From positions 736,023 to 800,022 of the forward strand of contig NZ_CP165719.1 in the NCBI RefSeq assembly GCF_041508025.1: 64,000 nt of DNA, written 5' to 3'. The translations under genes were made by a program, and so were the position numbers. This DNA comes from Candidatus Uabimicrobium helgolandensis (GTDB taxonomy: Bacteria > Planctomycetota > Uabimicrobiia > Uabimicrobiales > Uabimicrobiaceae). Below are positions 26,079 to 50,295 of this stretch, one piece after another (positions within the stretch are counted from its first letter, which is position 1; each line of letters begins with the position of its first letter). Under the pieces are notes generated by a model that searched no databases, was not told where the DNA came from, and saw only the letters and a list, made by a program, of their open reading frames with translations.

Positions 26079-28262
26079 TTAATCCACCTTAAAATAATTA
26101 TGAACACCTTGTTGTAGTAGCTGCATATCGCCAGGAATCGTAAAGAAATAATACCCGTGTTTTTGTTTTTGTAAAGCCGTTTCTAGATTGGCCGCATAGC
26201 TTCCAAGAGGAATGTTGTATTTGCGCGCAGTGGTTTCTATTTTTTGTATAGCTGCTTTTAATTCAGGAGAGTCGATAACAACTCCCATTGAAACTGATAA
26301 ATCGAAAGGACCTACATGCCACAAGTCTACTCCAGGCACTTGCGCTATTTGCTCTAAATTTTCTACAGCTTCAGGTGTTTCGATCATTAGTATTGTTAGT
26401 ACAACATTATTTGCTTCAGCGAAATACTCTCTAAACTTACCTAAATAACGATTTCCTCTTTCAGCACCAACAGGCCTTTTCCCAATAGGAGGGTATTTTG
26501 TGGCATCGACAGCTTTTTTAGCATCGTCAGCGTTTTTTATACTAGGAATAATAATTCCTTTTGCTCCAGTGCCAATATATTTTTTTATGTGCGAAATATC
26601 ATTTGTCGGAATTCGTACAATGGGTACCGTTTTTTCATTTTCAGCTACACGCACGAGGTTTTGTACATCTTTTACGCTCATTTCAGTGTGCTCTGCTTCG
26701 ATCCAAAAGAAATCAAGTTGATTTCCCATTGCCATATTTTCAATTATTTTAGCGTCGGCAATAGTTACAAATCCACCAAACGTAGGTTTTTTTAACAGAC
26801 TAATTTTTTCTTTTACTTTATTGTTCATCGTTGTTGATTTTAGCTCTTTTACAATACAACGTGTGATACGTGGATATTGTTCTCCTGTTTCAACGATAAC
26901 AAAATTTTGCTCTGCTTTAAATTTCATTTCTTCATTATCTTTTGTGGTACCTTGCCATTCCAATTTTACTTGCACAACATAATTACCATCGCGATCAATT
27001 TCGACTTTTACACTTTCGATATTGTGCGTCGCTTTTTTTATTTGTGATGCTACTAGTGAGTGCCATTTTTGAAAATCAAACACTGAATACAAATTTACAT
27101 CTGGAAATTGCATGTATAAACTTGTTTGTGATAATAACGGTAGAAAGTTTTTTAAATCGGCGTTATTGTCTAATAGTGAAAACCAGTGATAAATAAAACT
27201 AATGATTTGATTTTTATTGCGTAGTTCTGGACTTATAGGTATTTTGAAAATTCGGTACGGATTTGTGGGACTGCTGCCTAAATGTATTTGTGCTGTAGTA
27301 AAATAAAGTTGTCCATTACTTATAGAAAAACTATCGGGCCAAGAGATACTTTCGTGTTGTACCAAGTATTGCACTCGTAAACCAGGTGTTAAGCGCAAAA
27401 TAGCGTTGTTTTCCAAGCTTGAAATATATAAATTACCATGAGGGTCGAAAATCAAACCATCAGCGGCACCCGTTTTTCCTAAGACTTGTACGTTTTTATG
27501 TATAGTTTCTTGTGCAATATTTTGGTCGCGTAAAACCTGTGTACGTATGCGGTATAGACTTTTTGCCGTTAAAGCTTGGTAATATAAATACTCATTGTTC
27601 GGACTTAGGGCAATGCCATCTGAGTGAACCTGTGGCGCTTTACCACCGCGCAGCCATTTCTTACCTTCGATTTCTAATACCACGTCTTCAGCATTTGTAG
27701 AAGCGTGGTTATCTAGTAATCTACGCGAAATTCCCGTTTTTAAATCGAGAACAACAATTGCACCATCACCCGAGTCTGTCATATAAGCAAATTGGTTAAT
27801 CGTGTCCACACGCACGTCATTTAAGTAGCTATTTTTTAAAACAATACTTTCGTTGAAAGTATATATTTTCAGTATTTCATTGCTACTCAGATCTATTTTG
27901 AGGAGCTTGGGTCCACCTTTTATTACACCAGAAAATTTTGGATTTGCAGGATCAAGTACCCACAAAAAATTCTGATTATCTATATACACACTTTGGACAC
28001 AGACAAAGCGATTTCGCGGAGATAAATCAAGAGTCCACCCATTCCAGTTTTTATTAGGAAAAGGTATGACACGTCCATTTTTTTGCAGTTCTCCAACAGA
28101 AATAGGTGTACGTGCTCCCCATCTTGGGTAATTAACAAATGTGCGACCACTTTGTGAAACAGCGATTCCCGTCCACTGTCTTTTGGAGTTAGCCACTTCT
28201 TCGAGAATTTTTTCTTGGGCAACACAAGCGATAAACAGTAATACAAATATAAATTTTTTCAT
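26079..28262 (-). CDS. Secreted three-domain fusion: six-bladed beta-propeller (MRJP/yellow- or SMP-30-like), a central NTF2/SnoaL-like segment, and a C-terminal HpcH/HpaI-family aldolase
   Basis: The signal peptide is MKKFIFVLLFIACVAQ. FLWVLDPANP is MRJP-like. The C-terminal 250 aa match HpcH/HpaI aldolase blocks (FFWIEAEHTE…, LTILMIETPEAVENL, DLWHVGPFDLS). The start was chosen at 28262 with AAGGAA upstream. Confidence 0.65.
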   Translation of the reverse strand: MKKFIFVLLFIACVAQEKILEEVANSKRQWTGIAVSQSGRTFVNYPRWGARTPISVGELQKNGRVIPFPNKNWNGWTLDLSPRNRFVCVQSVYIDNQNFLWVLDPANPKFSGVIKGGPKLLKIDLSSNEILKIYTFNESIVLKNSYLNDVRVDTINQFAYMTDSGDGAIVVLDLKTGISRRLLDNHASTNAEDVVLEIEGKKWLRGGKAPQVHSDGIALSPNNEYLYYQALTAKSLYRIRTQVLRDQNIAQETIHKNVQVLGKTGAADGLIFDPHGNLYISSLENNAILRLTPGLRVQYLVQHESISWPDSFSISNGQLYFTTAQIHLGSSPTNPYRIFKIPISPELRNKNQIISFIYHWFSLLDNNADLKNFLPLLSQTSLYMQFPDVNLYSVFDFQKWHSLVASQIKKATHNIESVKVEIDRDGNYVVQVKLEWQGTTKDNEEMKFKAEQNFVIVETGEQYPRITRCIVKELKSTTMNNKVKEKISLLKKPTFGGFVTIADAKIIENMAMGNQLDFFWIEAEHTEMSVKDVQNLVRVAENEKTVPIVRIPTNDISHIKKYIGTGAKGIIIPSIKNADDAKKAVDATKYPPIGKRPVGAERGNRYLGKFREYFAEANNVVLTILMIETPEAVENLEQIAQVPGVDLWHVGPFDLSVSMGVVIDSPELKAAIQKIETTARKYNIPLGSYAANLETALQKQKHGYYFFTIPGDMQLLQQGVHNYFKVD

Positions 28263-28272
28263 AGAGTATTCC

Positions 28273-29031
28273 TTAATTTTTACGAGCAATAAAAATCATT
28301 TTTTGACTAGTATGTTCGAATGGTCTTTCATCGTACCAACCAAAAACATTTTCCACTGTGAAATTTGCTTGCTCTAATAATAGCTCCATCTCATAGCGAT
28401 GCACATAACGCAATATTTCGGTATACGGATAACGTTTTACTTCGCCGTCACAGCAAAGTTCTATGATATTGTTAGCAATAAGAACTTGTCGTGCGCTATC
28501 ATAGCGTCCACTGCACCAATGGTTCAATGTTGTATTTTCTTTGTAGTTTTCAATACACATAAGCAAAGATAGTTGCCCTTGGCACTGGGGTTGTTTTAGC
28601 AAATAAAATGGATGGAATACATCAATAACAAGTTTTGCGCCGGAAGTAAGATGCTTTGATATGTTTTGCAAACATATTTTTTGATGGGTAATAGAGGGGA
28701 GTAGTAAAAAAGAATTTGCTGCAATAAAAACACCCGATATTTTTCGAGGCAAGTTAAATTTTGTCATGTCGTCTTTTTGCCATTGTATGTATTTTTGTAA
28801 ATTTAAAGGGCATTTCTCTTGTCCCTTATCCAACATTGCCTGACTGATATCTAGAGCAATCATATGATGTTTTTTGGCAGCAAGTTCAATCGCTAAACGT
28901 CCCGTACCAGTGGCAAGCTCCAATAATGGATCTTCACTAGGAGTAAATACCCTTTCGTACAGAGGGAGATCATGAAGAAAACTAACGCAGACATCGTAGA
29001 AATCAACTTCATTATGACTGGGAGCACCCAA
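28273..29031 (-). CDS. Class I SAM-dependent methyltransferase
   Basis: Motif I is LELATGTGRLAIELA and motif post-I is MIALDIS. The apparent start is TTG at 29031 with AAAGG upstream. Confidence 0.7.
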   Translation of the reverse strand: MGAPSHNEVDFYDVCVSFLHDLPLYERVFTPSEDPLLELATGTGRLAIELAAKKHHMIALDISQAMLDKGQEKCPLNLQKYIQWQKDDMTKFNLPRKISGVFIAANSFLLLPSITHQKICLQNISKHLTSGAKLVIDVFHPFYLLKQPQCQGQLSLLMCIENYKENTTLNHWCSGRYDSARQVLIANNIIELCCDGEVKRYPYTEILRYVHRYEMELLLEQANFTVENVFGWYDERPFEHTSQKMIFIARKN

Positions 29032-29109: not shown

Positions 29110-29358
29110 GGGCGTGTCATCATTCAAAATATTGTGTGTTTTTTCGAGCCCGAGCCCGTTTGCGAAACTTTCACTAACAATTTATCAAAGAAGCAAAGTT
29201 TCTTTTTCCATCGCAAAAAACTAGTATTGAACCAATAAATCACTTTCTGTCGCTCTCAAAAAGTTTTCGGACGCGGGCTCGCAAACGGGCTCAATACTAC
29301 TGGCGTATCATTAAATGAATCCGTTATATTTTTATCTGTATTGAATGATGACAGGCCC
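29110..29358 (-). mobile_element. MITE copy A (inverted orientation, about 249 bp, internal 12-bp deletion)
   Basis: Its terminal inverted repeats are gggcgtgtcatcattcaa…ttgaatgatgacaggccc. The interior is the reverse complement of copies B and C. Confidence 0.85.
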
Positions 29359-35499: not shown

Positions 35500-35766
35500 G
35501 GGCGTGTCATCATTCAATACAGATAAAAATATAACGGATTCATTTAATGATACGCCAGTAGTATTGAGCCCGAGCCCGTTTGCGAGCCCGCGCCCGAAAA
35601 CTTTTTGAGAGCGACAGAAAGTGATTTATTGGTTCAATACTAGTTTTTTGCGATGGAAAAAGAAACTTTGCTTCTTTGATAAATTGTTAGTGAAAGTTTC
35701 GGAAACGGACTCACAAATGGGCTCGGGCTCGAAAAAACACACAATATTTTGAATGATGACACGCCC
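35500..35766 (+). mobile_element. MITE copy B (267 bp)
   Basis: The 19-bp TIR is gggcgtgtcatcattcaat/…attttgaatgatgacacgccc. Internal 25-bp inverted repeats gagcccgagcccgtttgcgagcccg / cgggctcgcaaatgggctcgggctc are present. It is about 98% identical to copy C. Confidence 0.9.
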
Positions 35767-36055: not shown

Positions 36056-36130
<75 letters not shown>

Positions 36131-36137
36131 TACTATA

Positions 36138-37616
36138 ATGAAACATTTCTATAAAAACACAAAAAACTTCCGCAAAAACACAGAAGCATTATCCTCATAC
36201 ATTATACATCAACGTTGGTATCGAGGGAAATCACAATCCAACCACAACATTTCTATCGATGATGTTATTGAAATTGCAAATGAACAATATATTTTTATTG
36301 TAACGGCAAACAATTCTATAAAACATAAATACATTCTTTTTCTAATTCTCTCTGAACAAAAACAACAAAATTCTATGTTTAATTTATATATAGATAATAA
36401 ACAATTATTTGTTTATGATGGATGTCAAAATGAGGAATATTGTAATAATCTGTGGAACATAATACAATTTCCAGATACATATCGTAATTTGAGTAGCTTT
36501 ATTATTCATCAAAATTTAGATCTCTCAATTAACAACTCAAAACTGCAAGATATTGAGCAGAGCAATACGAACATCATCTATGATGATCGCTTGTTACTCA
36601 AAATATTTAGGCAACCTCAACCTGGCACCAATCCTGATTTAGAAATAAATGTCTTTTTAAGCGAACAAGGTTTTTGTCACGTACCAAAAACAGTCGCTGC
36701 TATTCGTTATACATCAGACAGTGGTAAAATTTTCGATATTGCTATTGTCCAAGAATTAGTGAAAAACGCTAAAGATTGCTGGGAGCATACCGTCGATTTA
36801 GCAAGTAAGTTTTTAGTCCAAAATCGCGAAGAAAATTTAGCACAACGTTCGATTTTTAGCAGTTTAAAAACAATACCAAGCACAATGGAGTTATCCGCTA
36901 ATTTTGCCAAATTACTAGGGCAACGAACAGCCGAACTTCACCTAGCACTTACTAATACTAATGACAATGCTGATTTCACGCCATCAAAAATCGATAATCT
37001 TTATTTACTAAATCTATATAAAGGTTTTTGTGGTATATTGCAAGAGGTTGTCGATACATTAGAGAATAGTGATATGAGGACTAATCACAATGTCATTAAA
37101 TTTCTTGAGGCAAAGAATTATCTACAAACGCACTTTGAATCGTTGACAACGATAAAAACAGAGGGATTCCGTATTCGCTGCCATGGAGACTATCATCTTG
37201 GACAAATTTTAAAGTTAGAAACAGACATTGTTATTCTAGACTTTGAAGGCGAACCACTTCGTCCCATAGAAGAAAGGCGCCAAAAACAATCTCCTTTTAA
37301 AGATGTAGCAGGAATGATTCGTTCTTTTAACTATGCTGGATTTAAAGCCGCCATGGATTTAGGAACTACAGATATCTCTCGTGCAAACTATTGGGGGAAT
37401 ATTGTTTCCACAACATTTTTAAGTGAATACCTGAAAGTCGCTGAAAGTGGAAAGTTTTTATCGCAGAATAAACAACAACAAAGAGTTCTACTACAATTAT
37501 TCTTGTTTGATAAAGCTCTTTATGAATTGAAATATGAATTGAACAATCGCCCTGACTGGGTTCATATACCACTATCTGGTATAATCTCATTATTAAATGA
37601 TGTCATCGAAAAATAA
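36138..37616 (+). CDS. Maltokinase-like (Mak/Pep2 family) APH-fold kinase
   Basis: The C-terminal catalytic motifs RCHGDYHLGQIL and ILDFEGEP match maltokinase. The ATG lies 7 nt after the tRNA 3' end, so the longer ORF start at 36072 overlaps the tRNA and was rejected. Confidence 0.65.
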   Translation: MKHFYKNTKNFRKNTEALSSYIIHQRWYRGKSQSNHNISIDDVIEIANEQYIFIVTANNSIKHKYILFLILSEQKQQNSMFNLYIDNKQLFVYDGCQNEEYCNNLWNIIQFPDTYRNLSSFIIHQNLDLSINNSKLQDIEQSNTNIIYDDRLLLKIFRQPQPGTNPDLEINVFLSEQGFCHVPKTVAAIRYTSDSGKIFDIAIVQELVKNAKDCWEHTVDLASKFLVQNREENLAQRSIFSSLKTIPSTMELSANFAKLLGQRTAELHLALTNTNDNADFTPSKIDNLYLLNLYKGFCGILQEVVDTLENSDMRTNHNVIKFLEAKNYLQTHFESLTTIKTEGFRIRCHGDYHLGQILKLETDIVILDFEGEPLRPIEERRQKQSPFKDVAGMIRSFNYAGFKAAMDLGTTDISRANYWGNIVSTTFLSEYLKVAESGKFLSQNKQQQRVLLQLFLFDKALYELKYELNNRPDWVHIPLSGIISLLNDVIEK

Positions 37617-37748: not shown

Positions 37749-38013
37749 GGGCGTGTCATCATTCAATACAGATAAAAATATAACGGATTCATTTAATGAT
37801 ACGCCAGTAGTATTGAGCCCGAGCCCGTTTGCGAGCCCGCGCCCGAAAACTTTTTGAGAGCGACAGAAAGTGATTTATTGGTTCAATACTAGTTTTTTGC
37901 GATGGAAAAAGAAACTTTGCTTCTTTGATAAATTGTTAGTGAAAGTTTCGGAAACGGGCTCGCAAATGGGCTCGGGCTCGAAAACACACAATATTTTGAA
38001 TGATGACACGCCC
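37749..38013 (+). mobile_element. MITE copy C (265 bp)
   Basis: It has the same TIRs and interior as copy B and lies in direct orientation relative to B. Confidence 0.9.
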
Positions 38014-38450: not shown

Positions 38451-40604
38451 ATGAAGATACTATGGTTGTGCATTATCTTACTACTACCGTGCTTACAAGC
38501 GCAATTTGATATGCCAGATCCTGTAGATGCAGAACTTATTTCGCAACAACAAACCGTTGAGCCTGGCTCCTCGTTTTGGGTTGCTGTTAATTTGAAAATA
38601 GAAGACCACTGGCATACCTACTGGCGAAATCCTGGGTCTTCAGGTTTGCCTACAACTATTAAGTGGACACTACCAAAAGGAGTGACAGCGAGTGATATTC
38701 ATTGGGCAACACCACAGTGGATAAAATCAAGTGGTTTAGTCTCTCTTGCTTACGAACACGAAGTAGCGCATCTTGTCAAGATATCAGTGGCAAAAAACTT
38801 TGCCGAGAAAACCCTTAAACTTAGTGCGGCAGTAGATTGGTTAGTTTGTTCAGATGTCGGCAAACTTGCTGGTTGTTATCCTGGCGATGCTAAATTGACA
38901 ACATCTGTTGCAATAGGTAAGTCGCAAGAAAGCGATAAAAACAAAAAGTTTTTTAGTAAAGCCCATGCGCAATTACCAAAAACAAATGACAAGTGGCAAG
39001 TTTTAGCTAGTCGTGACAATAAGACTGTACGAATATTTCTTGTTGATGGTAGCAGTGCACAACAAAAATATGAAAATATGACGTTTTTTCCTCACCAAGA
39101 GTTCTTTAAACTAGAATCACCACAAAAATTTTCTTATGAAAATGGGGTGTATGTTATTGAAACTGAACTTGCAAGTACTGCTCCCAAAAAACTAAAAGAG
39201 GCTTTTGGAGAGATAAAGCTTGCAAATGGAAATTTACTGATATCAGTGGGAGTTATCAACCAAAAACTAGATTCGCAACAAGTAAAAGACTTAGTGAAAA
39301 ACGGTGGTATTGACAATCTTTCAACTACAGAGAGCTCTGATATTCTCGCAATATTATTTAATGTGTTTTTCGCATTTTTAGGCGGAATTATACTTAATGC
39401 AATGCCTTGTGTCCTTCCGGTAATCTCATTGAAGATTTTTGGATTCATTGAAGATGCCGGAGGAGACAAAAGTAAAATTTGGAAAAGTGGTCTTGCTTTT
39501 ACAGCAGGTGTTTTGGTGTCTTTTTGGATATTAGTTGGACTTTTATTTGCAATACGTGATTTTGGTCTTTTTGGTATAGAAGGTGCTGGATGGGGATATC
39601 AATTACAATCTCCTACTTTTGTTATTGCTTTAGTTATGGGCATAGTTTTGTTTTCATTGAACTTATTCGGCGTATTTGAAATTGGAACTTCACTAACAAG
39701 TGTTGGAAGCCAAACTAAGAAATCAGGGCTACTTTCATCGTTTTTGACAGGTGTGTTTACTACTATTATTGCGACACCATGTAGTGCTCCATTTATGGCA
39801 GCAGCGGTTGGTTTTGCAATGGCTCAAACTACAATAATTGGATTTTCTATTTTTACATCTCTTGCTTTAGGATTGGCATTCCCTTATCTAATGTTGTCTT
39901 TTTTTCCAAGTTGGTTAAGTGTACTACCGAAACCTGGGCGCTGGATGGAATCTCTTAAGAAATCTTTAGCGTTTCCTTTATTGGGAGCAGCAGTATGGCT
40001 ATTTTCTATTTTTGTGGTACTGATGGCCGAAAACGTTGCACAAGCAGAATATGTTGTATTCTACGGCTTAGCAGGTGCCTTTTTTCTAACACTTGCCGCT
40101 TGGATTTATGGTCGTTGGGGAATGGTCGGTAGCAAAAAACGTCCTCAAGGAATTGCTTACACTTTGATATGTGCTGCCGTAACAATTTATTGTTGTTATG
40201 CTTCTTTAAATCCACCATTTGAAACTTGGGTAAAGTTTTCACCGCAAAAAGTTGAACAACTGTTAGAAGAAGATAAACCAGTGTTTATTGACTTTACAGC
40301 TTCGTGGTGCATTACTTGCCAAGCAAATAAAAAAAATGCCTTACGTACAGATAAAGTAACTGAGCAATTTGCAAAATATGGCGTGGTAACAGTGACAGCT
40401 GACTGGACAAAGCGCGATAAAGTGATTGGCGATTACTTGCAAAAATTTGGAAGAAACAGTGTTCCTTTATATCTGCTTTATCATGGCAAGAGCGGTGAAT
40501 ATACAATATTACCACAATTACTTACCACAAGTATTGTTATTGAGGCTCTTGAGAAAAATCTAATTTTGCCACAAAAAGAAAAGCCAGAGGAGTTGAAAAA
40601 ATAA
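38451..40604 (+). CDS. dsbD: Thiol:disulfide interchange protein DsbD (N-terminal periplasmic domain, 8-TM core, C-terminal thioredoxin domain)
   Basis: It has a signal peptide. The TM-core Cys motifs are CVLPVISLKI and ATPCSAPF. The C-terminal thioredoxin CxxC is FTASWCITCQ. Confidence 0.85.
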   Translation: MKILWLCIILLLPCLQAQFDMPDPVDAELISQQQTVEPGSSFWVAVNLKIEDHWHTYWRNPGSSGLPTTIKWTLPKGVTASDIHWATPQWIKSSGLVSLAYEHEVAHLVKISVAKNFAEKTLKLSAAVDWLVCSDVGKLAGCYPGDAKLTTSVAIGKSQESDKNKKFFSKAHAQLPKTNDKWQVLASRDNKTVRIFLVDGSSAQQKYENMTFFPHQEFFKLESPQKFSYENGVYVIETELASTAPKKLKEAFGEIKLANGNLLISVGVINQKLDSQQVKDLVKNGGIDNLSTTESSDILAILFNVFFAFLGGIILNAMPCVLPVISLKIFGFIEDAGGDKSKIWKSGLAFTAGVLVSFWILVGLLFAIRDFGLFGIEGAGWGYQLQSPTFVIALVMGIVLFSLNLFGVFEIGTSLTSVGSQTKKSGLLSSFLTGVFTTIIATPCSAPFMAAAVGFAMAQTTIIGFSIFTSLALGLAFPYLMLSFFPSWLSVLPKPGRWMESLKKSLAFPLLGAAVWLFSIFVVLMAENVAQAEYVVFYGLAGAFFLTLAAWIYGRWGMVGSKKRPQGIAYTLICAAVTIYCCYASLNPPFETWVKFSPQKVEQLLEEDKPVFIDFTASWCITCQANKKNALRTDKVTEQFAKYGVVTVTADWTKRDKVIGDYLQKFGRNSVPLYLLYHGKSGEYTILPQLLTTSIVIEALEKNLILPQKEKPEELKK

Positions 40605-40606
40605 AA

Positions 40607-41704
40607 ATGAGCATTGAACAAAATTCCTACACAGTACCAGGAAGATATTGGACAATGCTAGACAACGGCAAAGTTCGCTGCGATCTTTGCCCACGTTATT
40701 GTAAATTACAAGAAAACCAGCGCGGACTATGTTTTGTCCGCGCTCGCAAGAACGATCAAGTGGTCTTGACGACATATGGTCGTTCAAGTGGTTTTTGCGT
40801 TGACCCTATTGAAAAAAAGCCACTCAATCATTTTCTTCCTGGCACTCCTATTCTTTCATTTGGTACAGCAGGTTGCAATCTCACATGTAAATTTTGCCAA
40901 AATTGGGATATTAGTAAATCGCGACAAATAGATACTCTTGCTGATAGCGCTTCGCCACAGCTCATTGCTAAAGCAGCACAGGAACTGGGATGTTCAAGTG
41001 TTGCTTTTACTTATAATGACCCTGTTATCTTTTTAGAATACGCGGTAGATGTCGCCAAAGAATGTCGTAAATTGGGTATCAAAACTGTTGCGGTAACCGC
41101 AGGAGAGATATGCGAAGAACCCCGCCGTGAATTCTTTGATCACATTGATGCTGCTAATGTTGATTTAAAAGCTTTTACACAAAAATTTTACAAGGAAATT
41201 TGTACAGGAGATTTGCAAACAGTTCTTGATACACTAGTTTATTTAAAGCATAATACCAATGTATGGTTTGAAACAACAACCTTGCTAATTCCAGGAGAAA
41301 ATGATTCTTCGCAAGAAATCGACGCTATGACATCTTGGGTCGTTGATAATCTCGGTCCTGAAATTCCCATGCATTTTACTGCTTTTCATCCTGATTGGAA
41401 AATGTTAGATAAACCGCGTACACCTCCAGAAACACTATCTATGGCTCGCGAAATTGCCATAAAAAATGGCGTTCGTTATGCTTACACTGGTAATGTTCAT
41501 GATAAGAAAGGTGGTAGTACGATTTGTCACCATTGTGGGGAATCACTTATTGTCCGAGATTGGTATGTGCTCCACAAGTGGAATTTGCAGCAAGATGGGC
41601 TTTGTAAAAACTGTAAAGTGAAGTGTGCAGGTGTTTTTGAAGAAAAACCTGGGAACTGGGGAACTAAGCGTTTACCTGTACGTCTAAAAGATTTTGTTGT
41701 CTAA
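40607..41704 (+). CDS. AmmeMemoRadiSam-system-type radical SAM enzyme (PFL-activase-like)
   Basis: The N-terminal Cys cluster is CDLCPRYC…C, the radical SAM CxxxCxxC is CNLTCKFCQNW and the C-terminal cluster is CHHCG…CKNCKVKC. The ATG lies 2 nt after the dsbD stop. Confidence 0.75.
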   Translation: MSIEQNSYTVPGRYWTMLDNGKVRCDLCPRYCKLQENQRGLCFVRARKNDQVVLTTYGRSSGFCVDPIEKKPLNHFLPGTPILSFGTAGCNLTCKFCQNWDISKSRQIDTLADSASPQLIAKAAQELGCSSVAFTYNDPVIFLEYAVDVAKECRKLGIKTVAVTAGEICEEPRREFFDHIDAANVDLKAFTQKFYKEICTGDLQTVLDTLVYLKHNTNVWFETTTLLIPGENDSSQEIDAMTSWVVDNLGPEIPMHFTAFHPDWKMLDKPRTPPETLSMAREIAIKNGVRYAYTGNVHDKKGGSTICHHCGESLIVRDWYVLHKWNLQQDGLCKNCKVKCAGVFEEKPGNWGTKRLPVRLKDFVV

Positions 41705-41774
41705 AATCTTAGAAATATTATGTTGAAAAAGATTACCATTTTTACTGTTCCTTAGCCCGAACAAGGAGAAGTGT

Positions 41775-43826
41775 ATGTCCACAAATCAAAATCGACACAA
41801 GGAAAAGCAAAAAAGTCAAACAGTAGAAACGTTATTTACTACTTCACAAAACCTTGTAGATTCAGAAGAAAATCAAGAATTAGCAACACAACATACGATG
41901 ATTGATAATTCTCAATTGCACACGCCACCAGCGAAAACAGAGCATACGATTGTTGAAAATAAGACAGCGCAAACGCAGCAAACAGTTCTATTCAATTCTC
42001 AGGAACGAATTGATTGCGAAGAACGAACGCGACAAACAATAGTTCAAAAAGATTCACTACAAACAAAATTGCCTGCTGTTTTTGCAGAAAAATACGAAGT
42101 ATTAGGTATTTTAGGTTCTGGAGCAATGGGAAAAGTATTTAAAGCTCTAGATAAAACTTCTAATCAACAAGTGGCCATTAAAGTAATCCACAAAAGTCAG
42201 GAAGATTCTCAGGATATAGTGAAGCGGTTTTATCGCGAATCAAAATTACTAGAGAAGTTAAATCATCCTCATATTATTAAGATTTATGAACAAGGAGAAT
42301 ATGAAGGACAACCTTATTTTGTCATGGACCTTGTACAGGGAACAACTTTAACAGCTGTATTGAAACAAAAAAATTATCCACTAAGACGCAAATTATCTTT
42401 ATTAATCCAAGTGCTTGAGGCAGTTGATTGTGCTCATAACGAAGGTGTCATTCACCGTGATTTAAAACCAGACAACATAATGGTGACTCCAAAAGCAAAA
42501 GCCCTTGTTATGGATTTTGGTATCGCACGCGATCAAGATGATCAAAACGCAACTAAATTAACAAAAACTGGCATGTTAGTAGGAACACCTCTTTATATGT
42601 CTCCAGAACAAATTAACGGAGAGAAAGTAACAGATGCCAGCGATATTTATACCTTGGGTGTTATTATGTATGAAATCATTACTGGAAAAGTCCCTTTTTG
42701 CGGAAATCTTAGCAAGATTATGTGGCAAGTAGCTCACAGTGATCCTACCCATCCTCGCGAAGTGTCCAACAATATAGCTAAAGATTTATCAAAAATATGT
42801 TTGAAAGCTATGGCAAAAGAACAAGAGGAACGTTATACAACAGCAAAGGCTATGGCAGACGATATCAGGTGTTATTTAAAGGGGCAAAAAATATCTGCTA
42901 AATCTTCTTTTGGTGTAAAAAAATGGGTCTCTAAAAATCGTAATTCTTTACTGTTACCATGTGTGGTTTTGATTGTAGGACTTATATTTTTAAGTCAAAA
43001 CAAAGACAAAATAACAGGCGAAAATAATGTGGTAGAAAATGATGGGCAAAATTTAGAAAACTCTGTAACAAAACGAAATGATACTGTTAACGATAAGCAT
43101 CCAAAAGATAAGTTTGGTAGACCACACGACGACGGACCACATGGTCAAAATAAACACCCACACAACGACAGACCACACCACGACAGACCACACGATAACG
43201 GACCACATGATAAAAATAAACATCCACACGACGACAGACTACATGATCAAGAGCCAAATGACGAAGACAAACATTCAGAAGATGGGAGACTGCATAAAGA
43301 ACCGCACCATAAAAATAAACGCCCAGGTAGATCACATGACAAAGAACTACACGACGAAGATAAACAGCCCAGAAATAATTTTGGCAGACATCATGGCAAA
43401 AATAAACGCTCAGAAAATAGTAGATTGCATGATAGAGATAAACGCCGTAATAAACTTGACAAGCCAATAGATGAAGAGTTTTTCGATGAAGAACTCGAAG
43501 ATAATTTTGGCGAAGATAGACCACGTCGCCGTAGATTTGAAGATATAGAAGAGCGTGTAGATAAAAGATTTGAACGCGGTAATCGAAATGTAGATAAAAG
43601 ATTCGAAAACGGTGAACACCCAAATCGACGTAATAGGCTTGGATCAATAGATAGAAAAAAAATATCTCGCAGCGAAATGCATAAATTAAATAAGCACTTT
43701 CGTTTTTGTAAAGAGTGTCACCATCTTTTGCGTAAAAACCGTATCAAACCAAGTCGTCCTCCGCGGTTAGCAAAATTACCAAAAGAAATCTTCTTAAAAA
43801 TTAAAGCGCATGCTGAAAAAGAGTAA
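41775..43826 (+). CDS. Membrane Ser/Thr protein kinase with C-terminal His/Asp/Pro-rich repeat region and Arg-rich tail
   Basis: The kinase motifs GSGAMGKV, AIK, HRDLKPDNIMV, DFGIA and SPE are present. A TM helix (LLLPCVVLIVGLIFLS) follows. The tail has repeats of the form [KN]KHPH[DN]DRPH, then R/E-rich segments and a CKECHH motif. The RBS AAGGAG lies 6 nt upstream. Confidence 0.85.
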   Translation: MSTNQNRHKEKQKSQTVETLFTTSQNLVDSEENQELATQHTMIDNSQLHTPPAKTEHTIVENKTAQTQQTVLFNSQERIDCEERTRQTIVQKDSLQTKLPAVFAEKYEVLGILGSGAMGKVFKALDKTSNQQVAIKVIHKSQEDSQDIVKRFYRESKLLEKLNHPHIIKIYEQGEYEGQPYFVMDLVQGTTLTAVLKQKNYPLRRKLSLLIQVLEAVDCAHNEGVIHRDLKPDNIMVTPKAKALVMDFGIARDQDDQNATKLTKTGMLVGTPLYMSPEQINGEKVTDASDIYTLGVIMYEIITGKVPFCGNLSKIMWQVAHSDPTHPREVSNNIAKDLSKICLKAMAKEQEERYTTAKAMADDIRCYLKGQKISAKSSFGVKKWVSKNRNSLLLPCVVLIVGLIFLSQNKDKITGENNVVENDGQNLENSVTKRNDTVNDKHPKDKFGRPHDDGPHGQNKHPHNDRPHHDRPHDNGPHDKNKHPHDDRLHDQEPNDEDKHSEDGRLHKEPHHKNKRPGRSHDKELHDEDKQPRNNFGRHHGKNKRSENSRLHDRDKRRNKLDKPIDEEFFDEELEDNFGEDRPRRRRFEDIEERVDKRFERGNRNVDKRFENGEHPNRRNRLGSIDRKKISRSEMHKLNKHFRFCKECHHLLRKNRIKPSRPPRLAKLPKEIFLKIKAHAEKE

Positions 43827-44003: not shown

Positions 44004-45683
44004 TTAATGACGTATGTAGTAAAAATAATCTACTTGCGGCATAAAACTTTCTCCTGCCTTAATTGTTTTTTTCCATTTCACAGTGGTGCTATTGTTTACG
44101 GCAGAACTACCACGGTAATTATTCCAATCTCTACTATTGTAAGCGTGTAGAGTTACGTTGCCATCATCTGAAGCTTGTGTTGCTTTACCACCAAAAGCAA
44201 AAATAATTTCAATATCAATTGCTCCACGTTTATTATTGCAAACATCTAATTTTGCTTGGTTGTTTACTTTTACATAGTGATATCCATCCCACTTCAAATC
44301 ACGTGGTTGGCGTTTAGTTTCTTTTTCGTTAACAGTCCCCTGAATATCCACAGCGATAGTTACTGGTACGCGAACTTTACTTCCAGAAGATGTATATGTA
44401 AGAAGTTCTTGGGCTAGAGGTTGTTGACCTTGCATAATCATTGCTGCTCCGGTTGTCCACGGAAGTTCCGTATTGTTTAGCAATTCAATTTCATGCCAAA
44501 TTTTATTCTCTGAAAACTCTAACTGCGTTCTATTTTTACTAGAGTAACTTAAATTATGCTTGATAGCAGCTTTCCACGTGTAAATATCGCGGTACTTAAC
44601 CTTCGCGGTAAAGATATGAACTGCTGCACGTCCACCTTTTCGAATAGTGAGTTTCGGTAATTTGTAAACAAATAAATCCTGCGAACCTTTTGCTGTAAGT
44701 TCTGAAGGCAAAGTAACATTTCCACTTTGTTGCGAACGTTGAGGAGCGCTATATGCATTTATTTGTTGCAAACTAACTGCAGCATTGGAAAAAGAGTTTG
44801 TTCGATTTTGACGTTGAGAATTGCGTAATACATTGCGTAAAGTATTTTCTAAACTCAGAGGACTTACCGTATCGCGAAAACGAAAATTGGGAACACCTAC
44901 CACTATATCCATTGGAACATCTAATAAATCTTCATTTTCATTGATAATTTCCGCTTGTAGTGAAATTGCGGCGATATTTTTGGGTTGCAAGTCAATGCGG
45001 TAAGAAGGAATCCAACGCATTCCAGGAGTAAAATACATTAGAGTAATGTTGTGTTTTTTATTTGCTTGTGCAAAATGAAAAGTCAGTTGTTTACGGCGCT
45101 CTTTGGTTTCGATCTTACGTTTTATTGTCGTTATCATATTGCGAACAAATAAACTACGAATTTGCGATACTGGTAGTAGCATGTCTCCTGTTTCGGTACG
45201 CAACACAAAATAAGAGCCTGAAATGCTTGAAATGGTTGCTTGTGAATTTTGCGTATTAAATACATTCTGTGACAAATTACTCACTGACTTACTTAGTAAA
45301 ACACGATGAATTCTTCCTTCGTATTTTGTTTTATCATTCATGACTATTTTGCATTTTTTGCCTTTGTTTACTTCTAGAATTTCAACATACTCAGTACAAG
45401 TAAAATCTTTTTCTTCGGTTTTTGTAACTTCGCGCCACTCAGCATTTAAACTGGTAATATCGGCCTCTTTTGCTGTTGCCCATAGCGAACCAAGAACAGC
45501 TGATTGCGGGACGTCATAGCTTATGATTTCACCTTTATCATTAGAAGTTGCACTTCCTTTTTTCACAACGAGACAATAACCATCTTTAAAAACAATGACC
45601 CTTTGTGTTTTAAATTTAATATCAACTGCGCCAACAAAAATAAACGAGAATGAAACAACTGCAAGCAATGTATATTTATACAT
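44004..45683 (-). CDS. Secreted beta-rich hypothetical protein (possibly DUF4139-like)
   Basis: The signal peptide is MYKYTLLAVVSFSFIFVGA, and the RBS TAAGGA lies upstream. No catalytic motif was recognised. Confidence 0.55.
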   Translation of the reverse strand: MYKYTLLAVVSFSFIFVGAVDIKFKTQRVIVFKDGYCLVVKKGSATSNDKGEIISYDVPQSAVLGSLWATAKEADITSLNAEWREVTKTEEKDFTCTEYVEILEVNKGKKCKIVMNDKTKYEGRIHRVLLSKSVSNLSQNVFNTQNSQATISSISGSYFVLRTETGDMLLPVSQIRSLFVRNMITTIKRKIETKERRKQLTFHFAQANKKHNITLMYFTPGMRWIPSYRIDLQPKNIAAISLQAEIINENEDLLDVPMDIVVGVPNFRFRDTVSPLSLENTLRNVLRNSQRQNRTNSFSNAAVSLQQINAYSAPQRSQQSGNVTLPSELTAKGSQDLFVYKLPKLTIRKGGRAAVHIFTAKVKYRDIYTWKAAIKHNLSYSSKNRTQLEFSENKIWHEIELLNNTELPWTTGAAMIMQGQQPLAQELLTYTSSGSKVRVPVTIAVDIQGTVNEKETKRQPRDLKWDGYHYVKVNNQAKLDVCNNKRGAIDIEIIFAFGGKATQASDDGNVTLHAYNSRDWNNYRGSSAVNNSTTVKWKKTIKAGESFMPQVDYFYYIRH

Positions 45684-45807
45684 AATAGCGTCCTTAAGTA
45701 ATCTTGTTGTAAGAAAAGTAACATCACGTACAATATACCATAGTATCAGAGTTTCTTTTGTAACAGGTTTGTAAAAGAAGATGTTAGTTTATGTGAGTTA
45801 AAGAAAT

Positions 45808-45840
45808 CACAAGTGCATGACATAAAACGATGCACTTGTG
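45808..45840. terminator. Perfect 11-bp inverted repeat (cacaagtgcat-N11-atgcacttgtg) just downstream of the ABC operon and in the upstream region of gene 44004-45683
   Basis: Seen directly in the sequence. It could be the terminator of the permease operon or an operator. Confidence 0.5.
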
Positions 45841-45849
45841 GATACTACT

Positions 45850-47493
45850 TTATTTCATATTGAGAATTTCTTGTTCTTCTTCTTCTAATTTTTTCCATCG
45901 TTGTAGGGAAGATCTTCTATTTTGAAAATGAAAAATGACCCCAATAAACAAGTATATAAAAATGTGATAGTAGTGGAGAGGAATTTCATAGATCAAATAA
46001 TTATAGTAAGTAGTTTTCAAATCCGCAACAGGAGCTAGGCTTAGTCCAAAACATAAGCTAGGTGATAAATATTGAAGATTAGCTAGGTTTGCACCAAAAT
46101 AATTTTCTGCCTCCATGTAGAACAAAGCATAAAGAGGTAAAAGCACAACTAAAAATAATGAGATACAAAAAAGAATGGCGCGGCGAAAACCTGCTTGTTT
46201 AATTCGAAAAGATAAGAATGTTGAAAGCATACAAAAAAAGTAGGTAAAGCTAAAAACGACTAATCCTGAAATGGCTAGTTGCTCGATATAGCTATGAGTA
46301 TATTTTTTAAAAAAACGATTATTTTTTATACCAAGTGATTCCACTAAAAACATAGTACCTACTAAGAAGATTAGCATCCACAAGATACTCATTGTACAGA
46401 CAAAACGCCCTCCTCGGTAAGATCCGGGTCCTAAAAGGGTGATGAATAATTTCCAATTAAATATTTTCCGTATACGACCAGCTTTCAAATACTCCGATAA
46501 ACGCTTCATAACAAATTTTTCTGGTACGGCATTTTCTCCTGCAAAGCCAATTGCCCCAATTAAGGAAAGTAGGCCTACTACCCCAAAGCAAAAACCACTG
46601 CTGACAATAATCATCTCATAATCTAGTTTTTGCCCTACAGAGAATATCGTGTTTATATAGTAGGTAAGAAAAATAGCAAGCAAACTTGTTCCGAATATTA
46701 CAAAGTACGCCCTAAGAGCTGTGGAACGATTGTTTGCATAGGTACGTAGAGAATTTTTTGCAACTAGATAAGGAGCAAAGATGAGCGAAAAAAATAGAAA
46801 AGGTGGCATAATATAAATTGTAAGAAAAACGTTTAGGCTTCCATAACCACCAATACTGATAAAAAAGCGGCTAATTTCGGAGAAATACAAATAATCTACA
46901 AGTAAATAAAATAATACTGGTGAGACAAAACTGTTTAATACAATAATAACAACATAACTTGCAATAATAGCACGCGTTATAGTCTTATATATACTTGAAA
47001 TAGCAAGACATAACATCACAATAAGAGCAGAATATGCAAACAAAACACCATATGTTATTGCAAGAAGATCAGGGGTTATTCCACCAAAAAGAAAAGCCAT
47101 CATCACTACAGGCAGTGAAGAAATTAAAAACATTGCGCAGTGAGTAAATGCTGAAAGAAATTTTCCCCAAACGATATCAGAGGGAGATAAATTTGCTGTA
47201 ACTAACAAATCGTATGTTTTGCCTTCTTTTTCCGAAATAATAGCGGTGCAACTAAAAGCTGGAAATACTAGACTAACAACAATGTATTGCATAATACTAA
47301 AAATCATAAATAAACTTTTACCTATACTTGCTGTTGCCATGCGTTCCATTGACATAAAGAAAAATCCCAGTAGCATAGCGCCGATCATAAGTAATATTGT
47401 AAGATTAAAAGTATAAAGAAAGCGTTTCGTGCGTAAGTGGGACCGCAACCCAAGTAAATGAATAGGGTTTATATATTTATCAAAGAATTCCAT
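45850..47493 (-). CDS. ABC transporter permease (ABC-2 type, about 12 TM)
   Basis: 547 aa, highly hydrophobic with repeated TM helices. Its start overlaps the ATPase stop (TAATG). Confidence 0.7.
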   Translation of the reverse strand: MEFFDKYINPIHLLGLRSHLRTKRFLYTFNLTILLMIGAMLLGFFFMSMERMATASIGKSLFMIFSIMQYIVVSLVFPAFSCTAIISEKEGKTYDLLVTANLSPSDIVWGKFLSAFTHCAMFLISSLPVVMMAFLFGGITPDLLAITYGVLFAYSALIVMLCLAISSIYKTITRAIIASYVVIIVLNSFVSPVLFYLLVDYLYFSEISRFFISIGGYGSLNVFLTIYIMPPFLFFSLIFAPYLVAKNSLRTYANNRSTALRAYFVIFGTSLLAIFLTYYINTIFSVGQKLDYEMIIVSSGFCFGVVGLLSLIGAIGFAGENAVPEKFVMKRLSEYLKAGRIRKIFNWKLFITLLGPGSYRGGRFVCTMSILWMLIFLVGTMFLVESLGIKNNRFFKKYTHSYIEQLAISGLVVFSFTYFFCMLSTFLSFRIKQAGFRRAILFCISLFLVVLLPLYALFYMEAENYFGANLANLQYLSPSLCFGLSLAPVADLKTTYYNYLIYEIPLHYYHIFIYLFIGVIFHFQNRRSSLQRWKKLEEEEQEILNMK

Positions 47494-48428
47494 TAGCTAA
47501 CCTCTCCTTGGGTTACCCTCATAAAAATATCTTCTAAATTACTTTGTGAAGATGTCACCTCTGTAATAGGAATATCGGCATTAACCAAGTTTTTTATTAC
47601 TAAATACAAGTTTTCTGTTTGTCCAGAATATTCAATTAAAATAGAATCATTTTCGTTGTGAACATTTATAATTTCATCGGTATTTTCTAATACGTTAAGC
47701 GCTGTTTCTATTTTCTCTTTGCTATGAATTTTGATGCGTACTTCTGTGTGATTTTTGCTAGAGAGTTGTGAAATCGTTTGTAGATTTCCACTTACAACTA
47801 AACCTCCTTTTTCAACAATTGCAACTGAATCAACAATATCCGAAAGTTCTGTTAGTATGTGACTTGAGATAAAGACAGTTTTGTTCATATTGCGTAGTTC
47901 TCTAAGAAGTGAGCGAAATTCAATACGAGCTCGCGGATCTAAACCAGCAGCAGGTTCGTCTAATATCAAAACATTTGGGTTGTGTAATAAAGTCTTTGCA
48001 AGACAAAGTCTTTGCTTCATTCCTTTTGATAGAGAAGAAACAAGCTTTGATTCTAGTTTTTGCAAGTCTGTCAATTCCATACAACCTTTTATTGTACCTG
48101 TACGGTTTTTTGGTGGAATACGATAGGAACGAGCAAAAAAATCTAGAAATTCAAAAATAGTTACATTATCGTATGTACCAAAATAGTCTGGCATGTATCC
48201 CATCGCCATACGAACTTTTTCTGGATCAGTATAGACACAGTGTCCATCAATCCAAGCGTTACCGCTATCTGGCTGCAATAAAGTAGCCAACATTTTTATG
48301 GTAGTTGTTTTTCCAGCACCGTTGGGACCGATAAATCCAAATATCTCGCCAGAAGGTACTTCAAATGACAAATTGTCCACGGCTAAAAAATTACCAAAAA
48401 TTTTTGTTAGGTTCTTCAACAAAATCAT
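47493..48428 (-). CDS. ABC transporter ATP-binding protein
   Basis: Walker A GPNGAGKTT, the signature LSKGMKQRL, Walker B LILDEPAAGLD and the H-loop SSH are present. Confidence 0.9.
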   Translation of the reverse strand: MILLKNLTKIFGNFLAVDNLSFEVPSGEIFGFIGPNGAGKTTTIKMLATLLQPDSGNAWIDGHCVYTDPEKVRMAMGYMPDYFGTYDNVTIFEFLDFFARSYRIPPKNRTGTIKGCMELTDLQKLESKLVSSLSKGMKQRLCLAKTLLHNPNVLILDEPAAGLDPRARIEFRSLLRELRNMNKTVFISSHILTELSDIVDSVAIVEKGGLVVSGNLQTISQLSSKNHTEVRIKIHSKEKIETALNVLENTDEIINVHNENDSILIEYSGQTENLYLVIKNLVNADIPITEVTSSQSNLEDIFMRVTQGEVS

Positions 48429-48429
48429 C

Positions 48430-50295
48430 TTAATTTTTCCTAGGTATGGGCATAAATAAAGCGCTTATTTTTTCAGTTATATTTATGCTTGGTTCTGTTT
48501 TTATGGGAGTCCAGTTTTCACGAAAAAGTAATATCACAAAATCGCGATTGTCACACTTTAAATAGTTTGTTATCTCTGTGTTGATAACTTTTGCCAAATG
48601 CGAAGAAATATTATCATCTAAAAGGTCTGTATTGTATCCATAATTGTTGAGCGTACGTAGTTTTTTATTGTAATGAAAAGTGGTTTTATTTGTACTGTTA
48701 TTAGACAAATTATAGATTTCTCTAGTTTTGTATTTAACATAAAAACTCTTGATAATTTCAATATTGTTCTCACCTTTATCAATTACAATATCATTGCCTT
48801 GTTTGTTGAGAACAATAGCACTGCTATTGAACACTGTGTCTATACGAAAAAACTTTGTCTCCCATAAGTTAATAGGATAATTGTGTATAAAGAGTCCTTT
48901 ATCTTGTTTATACTTAAGATTTTCGCTTCCTTCACTAAATATTTTAGTAACAATAGATTTTTCTTTCCCTTGAATTCGATAGAGGTTTTTAGCTCCTGAT
49001 GAAATAGCTAAGAATTCTTTACTATAATATTTATTATTTTCTAATGGATAATAAATTGAAATTTGCTTCCCTATATTGGAAACACCTTTGGAAAAAAAAC
49101 CATAAAATAACACAACAGCGCAAAATACTAAAGCAATTGCAGGTATGCTAAAAATCAGATACAAGGTTTTGTTTCTTTTTCTTAGAAATGTAAAGTTAAT
49201 AGGACCGATGAATAAAAAATATAAAATCATCATTATGATAATTAAACTAAGTATAGGTGCACGTTCTTTTGTAAACATTGCTTGATCAATATAACTGTTT
49301 TCACTCCCCAGTTTAAAAATTTTTTCATGCACTGAAGGTGTTTTTTGTTTAGGTAAACATTGCAACCAAAAATTACTGGTAGACTCTGAACGAGCGTAGG
49401 TTTTTAGATCAACTCCAACATATGTTATTGAGCCATAATTGTAGTCTAATTTCCAAAACAAGTCTTTGATAATCGCTCGTTGTTGCGGATGAGCAAAACG
49501 ATATTGGGTTTTGGAAAAAACTAAATTTTCAAACGCCTTAGAAGTATGTGATTCAGTTGTAATTTCGTCCAGTTGAAAAAGGTGTTGCATAAATTTATTC
49601 TTTGATAGCCACAAATTACTGGCGCAACTGACGACTAAATGACCACCCATTTTTAACCAATTGAGTAGTGCTTGAGCCTTGTCGTTATTTACATCACCGA
49701 ACTCTAAAAAAGGACGATCGCTATTTATAATAATGACATCAATATTCGAGTATTCTAACCAGTGCGATGGCAAGTCTTGTACCCCTATTTGTTCTATTTC
49801 TACAGTACGATACTGCTTTAAATCGCGACGCATCATCGGAGCAAGAAAGGAGGCATCGAAATGCTTTGGAGGGCAGATATACAAAATCCTTAGCGCATTG
49901 TAACCCGAACGAGGTTGAACACTTGAGCGTATGATTTTTCGACTATTAGCAAATACAAAAAATTTAATTTCATAAGTATTGGAACTAACCTCGCCATACA
50001 ATCGAAAATAACGTCTACTACTTGGTAAAATTTCAATATCTTTGTCGATCGTTGTTTTTTTTCTCCAACTAGTAGAATGAGCTTGTAGAGAAATTGTTTG
50101 TTTTTTCCATGAACTGTTAGTTACTAATACACCAGATATGGTTATATATCCTCTTTCTGATGACGAGAAATTGGTTATGGCTTTGAGGTTTTCAATCTTT
50201 AAATTGTTTTTTGAAGATGTCAAATTTTCATACGACATGCTTTGGCTACAACAAAAAGAAAGAAATAAGTAATTTAATAATAATATTGTTCTCAT
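48430..50295 (-). CDS. Membrane-anchored accessory protein of the ABC operon (GldG-like architecture, hypothetical)
   Basis: 621 aa. It has an N-terminal signal/lipobox-like FLSFCCS, two central TM helices (LSLIIIMMILYFLFIG…, LYLIFSIPAIALVFCAVVLFYGFF) and large extracytoplasmic domains. Its stop lies 1 nt before the ATPase start. Confidence 0.55.
   Translation of the reverse strand: MRTILLLNYLFLSFCCSQSMSYENLTSSKNNLKIENLKAITNFSSSERGYITISGVLVTNSSWKKQTISLQAHSTSWRKKTTIDKDIEILPSSRRYFRLYGEVSSNTYEIKFFVFANSRKIIRSSVQPRSGYNALRILYICPPKHFDASFLAPMMRRDLKQYRTVEIEQIGVQDLPSHWLEYSNIDVIIINSDRPFLEFGDVNNDKAQALLNWLKMGGHLVVSCASNLWLSKNKFMQHLFQLDEITTESHTSKAFENLVFSKTQYRFAHPQQRAIIKDLFWKLDYNYGSITYVGVDLKTYARSESTSNFWLQCLPKQKTPSVHEKIFKLGSENSYIDQAMFTKERAPILSLIIIMMILYFLFIGPINFTFLRKRNKTLYLIFSIPAIALVFCAVVLFYGFFSKGVSNIGKQISIYYPLENNKYYSKEFLAISSGAKNLYRIQGKEKSIVTKIFSEGSENLKYKQDKGLFIHNYPINLWETKFFRIDTVFNSSAIVLNKQGNDIVIDKGENNIEIIKSFYVKYKTREIYNLSNNSTNKTTFHYNKKLRTLNNYGYNTDLLDDNISSHLAKVINTEITNYLKCDNRDFVILLFRENWTPIKTEPSINITEKISALFMPIPRKN

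Follow-up and report, generated by a model that had tools for sequence, protein, structure and literature searches.

The stretch of DNA analysed here, called the window, covers 64 kb of the genome of Candidatus Uabimicrobium helgolandensis HlEnr_7 (CP165719). This organism is a planctomycete with phagocytosis-like engulfment of prey (PMC11481906). Four genes on the forward strand are the subject of the analysis. They encode a maltokinase-like protein, DsbD, an AmmeMemoRadiSam-type radical SAM enzyme and a Hanks-type Ser/Thr kinase (Table 1). An earlier note on this DNA, made from its sequence alone, had described the last three as an unusual envelope redox/signalling module. Its observations proved largely correct, and its interpretation only partly supported.

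Table 1. Features of the four-gene block and its surroundings (positions in the window).
Feature	Position	Strand	Basis
Maltokinase-like gene (TreS_Cterm/APH-fold), upstream block member	36135..37616	+	TIGR02457 E 4e-97
MITE-like element, 18-nt terminal inverted repeats, in the gap between the maltokinase-like gene and dsbD	37749..38013	.	repeat search
dsbD: signal peptide, DsbD_N, DsbD/CcdA transmembrane core, C-terminal thioredoxin-like domain (WCITC)	38451..40604	+	Pfam; NCBI DsbD family protein, 100% identity
AmmeMemoRadiSam-type radical SAM enzyme, 365 amino acids	40607..41704	+	TIGR04337 match; conserved Cys
CX3CX2C radical SAM cluster motif (C90, C94, C97)	40874..40897	+	read from sequence; 100% conserved
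Hanks-type Ser/Thr kinase, 683 amino acids (P0241)	41775..43826	+	Pfam Pkinase E 4e-56; NCBI protein kinase, 100% match
Kinase catalytic domain, residues 107-362; Gly-loop, AIK, HRDLKPDN, DFG	42093..42860	+	Pfam and sequence motifs
Single hydrophobic (transmembrane) segment, residues 390-408	42942..42998	+	Kyte-Doolittle mean 2.06
Charged low-complexity spacer, residues 409-632; length and sequence not conserved	42999..43670	+	composition, linker comparison
Tandem DNA repeat, 66 nt x 1.9, nested 15-nt units, encoding His-rich KHPH(D/N)DRPH units	43119..43243	+	repeat analysis
Conserved C-terminal HCCH module, about 50 residues	43671..43823	+	invariant H, C, C, PP, P, H, A in alignment

We compared the window with five loci of the same lineage. 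These are L001, L016/L017 (marine metagenome), L009 (re-sequenced Ca. U. amorphum) and L002, which belongs to a more distant relative. The order of maltokinase-like gene, dsbD, radical SAM gene and kinase gene is present in all five. The adjacency of dsbD and the radical SAM gene, noted before for the window only, is thus kept in every relative recovered. L001 is close to the window (DsbD 72% and radical SAM enzyme 90% identical), and in L002 the same proteins are 52% and 78% identical. All the other genes of the L002 contig differ. It keeps the maltokinase-like homologue 5' of dsbD, with a DUF547 gene inserted, and therefore the conserved block consists of four genes. The maltokinase-like homologues upstream of dsbD share 61-63% identity with the window in L001, L009 and L016, and 42-44% in L002.

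The genes downstream of the maltokinase-like gene are closely packed. The radical SAM gene starts 2 nt past the dsbD stop codon (TAA-AA-ATG), exactly as the earlier note had read it. Starting with the window and following with the lineage loci, this gap measures 2, 2, 2, 12 and 4 nt, and an AGGAG box lies at the end of dsbD. The kinase gene comes next, with its own Shine-Dalgarno sequence (AAGGAG). It follows the radical SAM stop codon by 70 nt in the window and by 43, 31, 12 and 8 nt in the lineage loci. A consensus scan found no terminator-like sites on the + strand between the block genes. An RNA element between them was also considered and rejected, as the Rfam scan gave no match except a tRNA. 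The part of the module proposal that concerns gene organization holds, since the three genes are a conserved and tight unit. The part that concerns a shared mechanism is not supported, and nothing was found that ties the radical SAM enzyme mechanistically to DsbD or to the kinase.

The arrangement was found only in this lineage. In the nearest DsbD outgroup context recovered (L012), the gene after dsbD is the usual Redoxin/AhpC-TSA neighbour and not a radical SAM gene. Scans with the DsbD alignment gave only distant matches, two in species-representative genomes and three in the JGI metagenomes. Among them there was no radical SAM gene beside DsbD and no closer relative.

The 5' part of the block is less compact. 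The gap between the maltokinase-like gene and dsbD is 834 nt in the window, compared with 159-211 nt in the sister genomes, and the window gap holds an insertion similar to a miniature inverted-repeat transposable element (MITE). This MITE-like family of about 250-265 bp has three intergenic copies in the window (29110-29358, 35500-35766 and 37749-38013). They are bounded by 18-nt terminal inverted repeats (GGGCGTGTCATCATTCAA) and contain another, internal inverted repeat. For the terminal repeat, 6 matches were counted where 0.05 would be expected. Copies 2 and 3 are near-identical, and one copy precedes the dsbD start by about 440 nt. At the other side, a tRNA-Pro(UGG) gene (36056-36130) directly precedes the maltokinase-like gene. 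The open reading frame called mechanically from 36072 to 37616 reads through this tRNA ('GRWFESSHPD'), hence the true start of the maltokinase-like gene is near 36135.

The naming of dsbD made from the bare sequence was accurate. Pfam recovers the three-domain architecture (DsbD_N, DsbD_TM and Thioredoxin_7), with every domain above its cutoff. The redox cysteine pairs C133/C142, C320/C444 and C620/C623 are present, and all six residues are invariant in the orthologue alignment.

The radical SAM enzyme belongs to TIGR04337. It scores 640 bits against a cutoff of 220, and its residues 13-360 cover profile positions 2-349 of 349. The CxxxCxxC motif had been reported before together with additional N- and C-terminal cysteine clusters, and all of these are real. 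The sets C90x3C94x2C97, C25/C28/C32/C42 and C307/C310/C333/C336/C340 are 100% conserved in 118 other homologues. We took as a reference the 172 columns with a conservation of 97% or more among these homologues. The window enzyme retains all 16 of the cysteines conserved at this level, and the enzymes of the Uabimicrobium clade show only a handful of conservative substitutions over the 172 columns. Homologues whose annotation points to Thermoanaerobaculia, Gammaproteobacteria, Nitrospiraceae and Anaerolineae share 72-75% identity with the window enzyme. It is a canonical and strongly constrained TIGR04337 enzyme, with no sign of altered function.

The AlphaFold2 model of this enzyme has a mean predicted local distance difference test (pLDDT) of 78 and a predicted template modelling score of 0.83. 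Its fold matches in the PDB are pyruvate formate-lyase activating enzyme (PFL-AE) and lipoyl synthase, and they cover only the core. PFL-AE (PDB 3c8f, 8fo0) is the closest solved structure. It shares the partial TIM-barrel radical SAM core (Foldseek E ~1e-10, TM-score ~0.7 on the target) at only 17-18% identity. By sequence, too, PFL-activating enzymes are the only relatives with a solved structure. PFL-AE lacks the Cys4 beta-rich region at the N-terminus and the Cys5 region at the C-terminus of the window enzyme, which reaches 62 bits on the PFL-AE model, whose cutoff is 232.

The enzyme had been called SPASM-like, and this description has to be abandoned. SPASM (PF13186) gave no Pfam match, either in the whole protein at E<=0.01 or in the C-terminal 74 residues at E<=1. 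Matches to families with SPASM domains span just core residues 83-181, and the best folds are the two named above. Neither a signal peptide nor a membrane segment was detected in the enzyme. For this reason it could not meet the periplasmic domains of DsbD. We regard it as cytoplasmic, with no plausible direct chemistry with DsbD. A scan of viral contigs with the radical SAM enzyme returned one irrelevant fragment.

In the AmmeMemoRadiSam system, the radical SAM enzyme (TIGR04337) is accompanied by an AMMECR1-like protein A (TIGR04335) and a Memo-like protein B (TIGR04336). A neighbourhood of AMMECR1, a radical SAM enzyme and a dioxygenase was first pointed out in 2007 by Balaji and Aravind, who predicted a role in an uncharacterised RNA base modification (PMC2034487). 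Our literature searches on the system found no experimental characterisation of it and no function established for it in any organism. The conservation of AMMECR1 and MEMO1 extends from archaea to human, and both are linked to disease. Because the reaction of the bacterial system is unsolved, a reproducible new genomic association of its radical SAM enzyme is a possible clue. The association described here is reproducible, but it is narrow, as it comes from one lineage.

We searched for the two partners in the window by Pfam on 39 of the 45 open reading frames of at least 150 amino acids and by NCBIfam on 2 further frames at the 3' end. All six frames were also searched by tblastn and phmmer with a Memo::AMMECR1 fusion from L003 as query. 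Neither AMMECR1 nor Memo was found in the window by these searches, nor in the related loci L001, L002, L009 and L016/L017. To this extent the enzyme is an orphan, as proposed. However, this condition is not distinctive. Four contexts from outside the lineage (L003, L010, L014 and L015), with radical SAM homologues of about 74% identity, were examined over flanks of about 10 kb. Only in L003 does the homologue adjoin a Memo::AMMECR1 fusion. The other three, from other phyla, have neither partner within about 10 kb. A second radical SAM gene in L015 was considered as a paralogue and rejected, as it shows no similarity at E 1e-5.

The window enzyme thus matches the system over its full length and shares identity and all conserved cysteines with homologues of which one is linked to its partners. 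It differs in its position between dsbD and a kinase gene, with no partners in 64 kb or in five related loci. As its conserved columns and cysteines show no drift, we read it as an enzyme under the same constraints as its homologues elsewhere, and performing the same reaction. The AMMECR1 and Memo partners are then probably encoded at another locus of the 9.3-Mb genome.

The third protein is a Hanks-type kinase with a single transmembrane segment, as the earlier note had recognized. Its catalytic domain matches PF00069 at 190.8 bits, and the motifs GSGAMGKV, AIK, HRDLKPDN and DFG can be read directly. In all the loci, the position after the radical SAM gene is occupied by a kinase of the same small subfamily. 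Its members present an optional Q/T-rich N-terminal extension, the kinase domain, one hydrophobic segment, a low-complexity spacer and a C-terminal module that we call HCCH. The kinase-domain identities separate two sub-clades. The short one is adjacent to the radical SAM gene in U. amorphum, L001 and L016. In U. amorphum the long one is encoded two genes beyond it (L009:16206-18383). With the long clade the window kinase shares 73-75% identity, with L002 65% and with the short clade 60-62%. The position after the radical SAM gene is therefore conserved at the level of the subfamily and not of strict orthology.

The topology of eight subfamily kinases was read from Kyte-Doolittle hydrophobicity and from the charges flanking the hydrophobic segment. 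In the window kinase the net charge is +5 on the N-terminal side and -2 on the C-terminal side. In 8 of 8 kinases the flank before the segment is positive, and the flank that follows is neutral or negative. The tail had been placed outside the cytoplasm, and this is the more likely topology. The flank charges and the presence of the same module on a protein with a signal peptide (see below) argue for it. One domain on the tail of the L002 kinase conflicts with it.

The window kinase resembles the single-pass Hanks receptor kinases of the PknB/PrkC type, with a cytoplasmic Pkinase domain, one transmembrane helix and a C-terminal part predicted to be extracytoplasmic. It is also a member of the lineage-specific expansion of membrane Ser/Thr kinases described in Ca. 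U. amorphum (Odelgard et al. 2024, PMC11032199). Compared with known receptor kinases, its outer part lacks a PASTA, WD40 or TPR domain. It consists instead of a disordered charged spacer (50-320 residues in the subfamily) and of the lineage-restricted HCCH mini-module. As another example of the kinases of this genus, the window encodes at 3274-9813 (-) a protein of 2179 residues with Pkinase and long WD40 beta-propeller arrays, one of its kinase-WD40 giants (PMC11032199).

The spacer does not support the metal-binding domain that had been suggested for the tail. The tail was said to consist of His-rich repeats. The motif [KN]KHPH[DN]DR[PL]H matches just twice (residues 459 and 481), together with two or three shorter DRPH units. 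All of them are confined to about 45 of the 271 tail residues and to a single repeat array in the DNA. The composition of the tail is charged in general (H 10, D 11, E 10, K 12, R 13 and N 10%). In the relatives, the linkers are unrelated in sequence. Repeats of the DRHPPRHDRFSS type occur in P0242 and repeats of the EEMNSRSHRPRKKRQ type in P0243, the L002 kinase has a K/E-rich, coiled-coil-like stretch, and the short clade has only about 50 residues. Their His content varies from 1 to 12% among orthologues and paralogues, with 1-3% in L002, P0243 and P0245. The His repeat was therefore rejected as a domain, being a tandem duplication that is absent from the orthologues. The His-rich units are a recent tandem duplication inside a fast-evolving disordered spacer, and not a conserved sensor domain.

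Some open reading frames overlap these genes. Those overlapping dsbD (39134-39469, -) and the kinase tail (43078-43470, +; 43087-43647, -) were rejected as genes and considered by-products of coding or repetitive sequence. The translations of the frames over the kinase tail are T/H/D-rich and V/Y/R-rich.

What is conserved in the tail is its end. The HCCH module has the motif H-[FY]-x2-C-x2-C-...-N-[IV]-...-PP-x-W-...-P-...-H-A, and no Pfam or NCBIfam family corresponds to it. Its profile was compared with 1.84 billion cluster representatives. It gave 6 matches, of which one is a protein with a YHYH domain and the others are kinases of the subfamily or a fragment of such a kinase. The AlphaFold2 model (pLDDT 75) consists of three short helices, the second of which begins with the CxxC, and no fold in the PDB matches it. 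By these comparisons, the module is restricted to the Uabimicrobium lineage and previously undescribed. We infer that its two invariant Cys and two invariant His form a periplasmic thiol or metal site.

The YHYH protein is encoded by a convergent gene right after the short kinase in the sister genomes (L009:14509-15804, L016:11236-12525, L017:2436-3725 and L001:10843-12048, all on the - strand). It has an N-terminal signal peptide, the YHYH domain (230 bits), His/Arg-rich linkers and one or two C-terminal HCCH modules. For the YHYH domain, a literature search returned no known function. In the window, HCCH occurs only on the kinase, and the YHYH protein is absent from the corresponding position. 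A convergent cluster at 44004-50295 (-) stands where U. amorphum has the neighbourhood of the YHYH protein and the long kinase. In it, a 559-residue protein with a signal peptide and a 621-residue protein, both without family match, flank an ABC-2 permease and an ABC ATPase.

We consider that the maltokinase-like gene, dsbD, the radical SAM gene and the kinase gene form a lineage-specific, vertically inherited, operon-like block, all of whose genes are ordinary members of known families. We give this reading a probability of about 0.5. The last three genes would be co-transcribed as one unit, with dsbD and the radical SAM gene translationally coupled. DsbD would have its usual role, in which electrons from thioredoxin in the cytoplasm are handed to thiol proteins of the periplasm. 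It could set the state of the HCCH thiol/metal site, and the kinase could report that state. This link is plausible, and it would be the only biochemically sensible one within the block. The radical SAM enzyme would share the operon for co-expression, not for direct chemistry with DsbD.

Periplasmic reductant pathways of the DsbD/CcdA type serve dedicated clients, such as DsbC, DsbG and CcmG for DsbD, or ScoI for TlpA in copper-site assembly. The block has the elements of such a pathway. Its DsbD has the full architecture and all six redox cysteines. The kinase tail, which is probably periplasmic, carries an invariant CxxC, a motif of the type held reduced by these pathways. The sister genomes encode a second CxxC protein, the YHYH protein. 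On the other hand, the putative client is a helical module of about 50 residues on a Ser/Thr kinase and not a thioredoxin-fold protein.

A small kinase subfamily and a secreted-type protein thus share an undescribed Cys/His module beside dsbD. They are candidates for redox or metal sensing in an organism with more than 500 kinases without an assigned input. The interest would rise if the genome lacks AMMECR1 and Memo, or if the module is a DsbD-dependent switch.

Several points weigh against the operon-like reading. The link from DsbD to the HCCH module is one that we infer, and AMMECR1 and Memo are only assumed to be encoded elsewhere in the genome. The kinase adjacent to the radical SAM gene is not strictly orthologous among the loci, as the window copy is nearer to the long clade than to the short clade that is adjacent in U. 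amorphum. Ca. U. amorphum has 525 Ser/Thr kinases, 8% of its proteome (PMC11032199). At this frequency in the genus, a kinase will be a neighbour fairly often by chance, and such a neighbour counts for little on its own. Moreover, in the L002 kinase (L002:6073-8481) the tail continues past the HCCH module into an intact-looking Hen1-type domain, a SAM-dependent RNA 3'-end 2'-O-methyltransferase (TIGR04074, E 9e-38, profile positions 238-446 of 462). Since this domain needs S-adenosylmethionine and RNA, the fusion fits poorly with a tail in the periplasm. There is one such case, on one short-read contig, and it may be either genuine or a product of the assembly. Finally, all the recovered examples come from one clade, and the block includes the maltokinase-like gene. 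The conservation may therefore be residual synteny and not functional selection.

This last point leads to the alternative that survives best, pure synteny by descent. DsbD would be a housekeeping protein, the radical SAM enzyme would have unlinked partners, the kinase would be one of more than 500, and no functional relation would join them. Several of the points above suit it, namely the restriction to one clade, the extension of the block to an unrelated maltokinase-like gene and the share of kinases in the proteome. It also agrees with the different downstream neighbours of HlEnr_7 and U. amorphum, where the adjacent kinases belong to different sub-clades, and with a MITE inserted 5' of dsbD without apparent constraint. 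Nevertheless, gaps of 2-12 nt, with a Shine-Dalgarno sequence overlapping the end of dsbD, are kept even in L002. There the packing persists although DsbD has diverged to the level given above and no gene of the contig outside the block has a homologue in the other loci. In addition, a kinase of the HCCH subfamily always comes next after the radical SAM gene, and the second protein with the CxxC module is clustered with it in the sister genomes. We think that synteny by descent is possible, but rather unlikely.

A stronger version of the operon-like reading can also be formulated as a novel type of signalling circuit in the envelope. DsbD would control the thiol/metal state of HCCH on the kinase, and on the YHYH protein in the sisters. 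The kinase would relay this state to the cytoplasm, and the co-translated radical SAM enzyme would be the regulated output. We regard this circuit as improbable. If true, it would give the first physiological input signal for the pathway of the radical SAM enzyme, AMMECR1 and MEMO, in the only bacteria known to engulf prey.

Another alternative places the kinase in RNA modification or repair. The basic tail and the HCCH module would be cytoplasmic and bind nucleic acid, they would act together with the radical SAM enzyme in one RNA-directed pathway, and DsbD would be a bystander. [quoted passage not shown] We see in the fusion only a faint echo of that prediction, given that it comes from one sequence. 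A hydrophobic segment lies between the kinase domain and the tail in 8 of 8 proteins, with flank charges that predict the C-terminus outside. The HCCH module is also found on the YHYH protein, which has a signal peptide. This makes the RNA alternative very unlikely.

The least probable account is that of the earlier note, one envelope redox/signalling machine made of an orphan, repurposed, SPASM-like radical SAM enzyme, a DsbD electron conduit and a kinase sensing metals through His repeats: the conserved order and tight spacing, the lack of AMMECR1 and Memo in 64 kb and in any related locus, the probably periplasmic tail and the His-rich stretches beside HCCH in some relatives and in the YHYH protein (10-14% His, against a background of 1.9%) favour it, but the enzyme has not diverged from its partner-linked homologues and has no SPASM domain, other phyla commonly have neighbourhoods without partners, the His repeat arose by recent duplication and is missing from the orthologues, and an enzyme without signal peptide or membrane segment would have no contact with the periplasmic domains of DsbD.

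Far from the block, the window contains three eukaryote-flavoured or unusual genes. One is a homologue of neutral/alkaline ceramidase (325-2379, +). Another encodes a major-royal-jelly-protein (MRJP) domain fused to an HpcH/HpaI aldolase (26079-28289, -). The third encodes a prolyl-tRNA synthetase of the archaeal/eukaryote type with a ProRS-C_1 domain (17996-19519, +).

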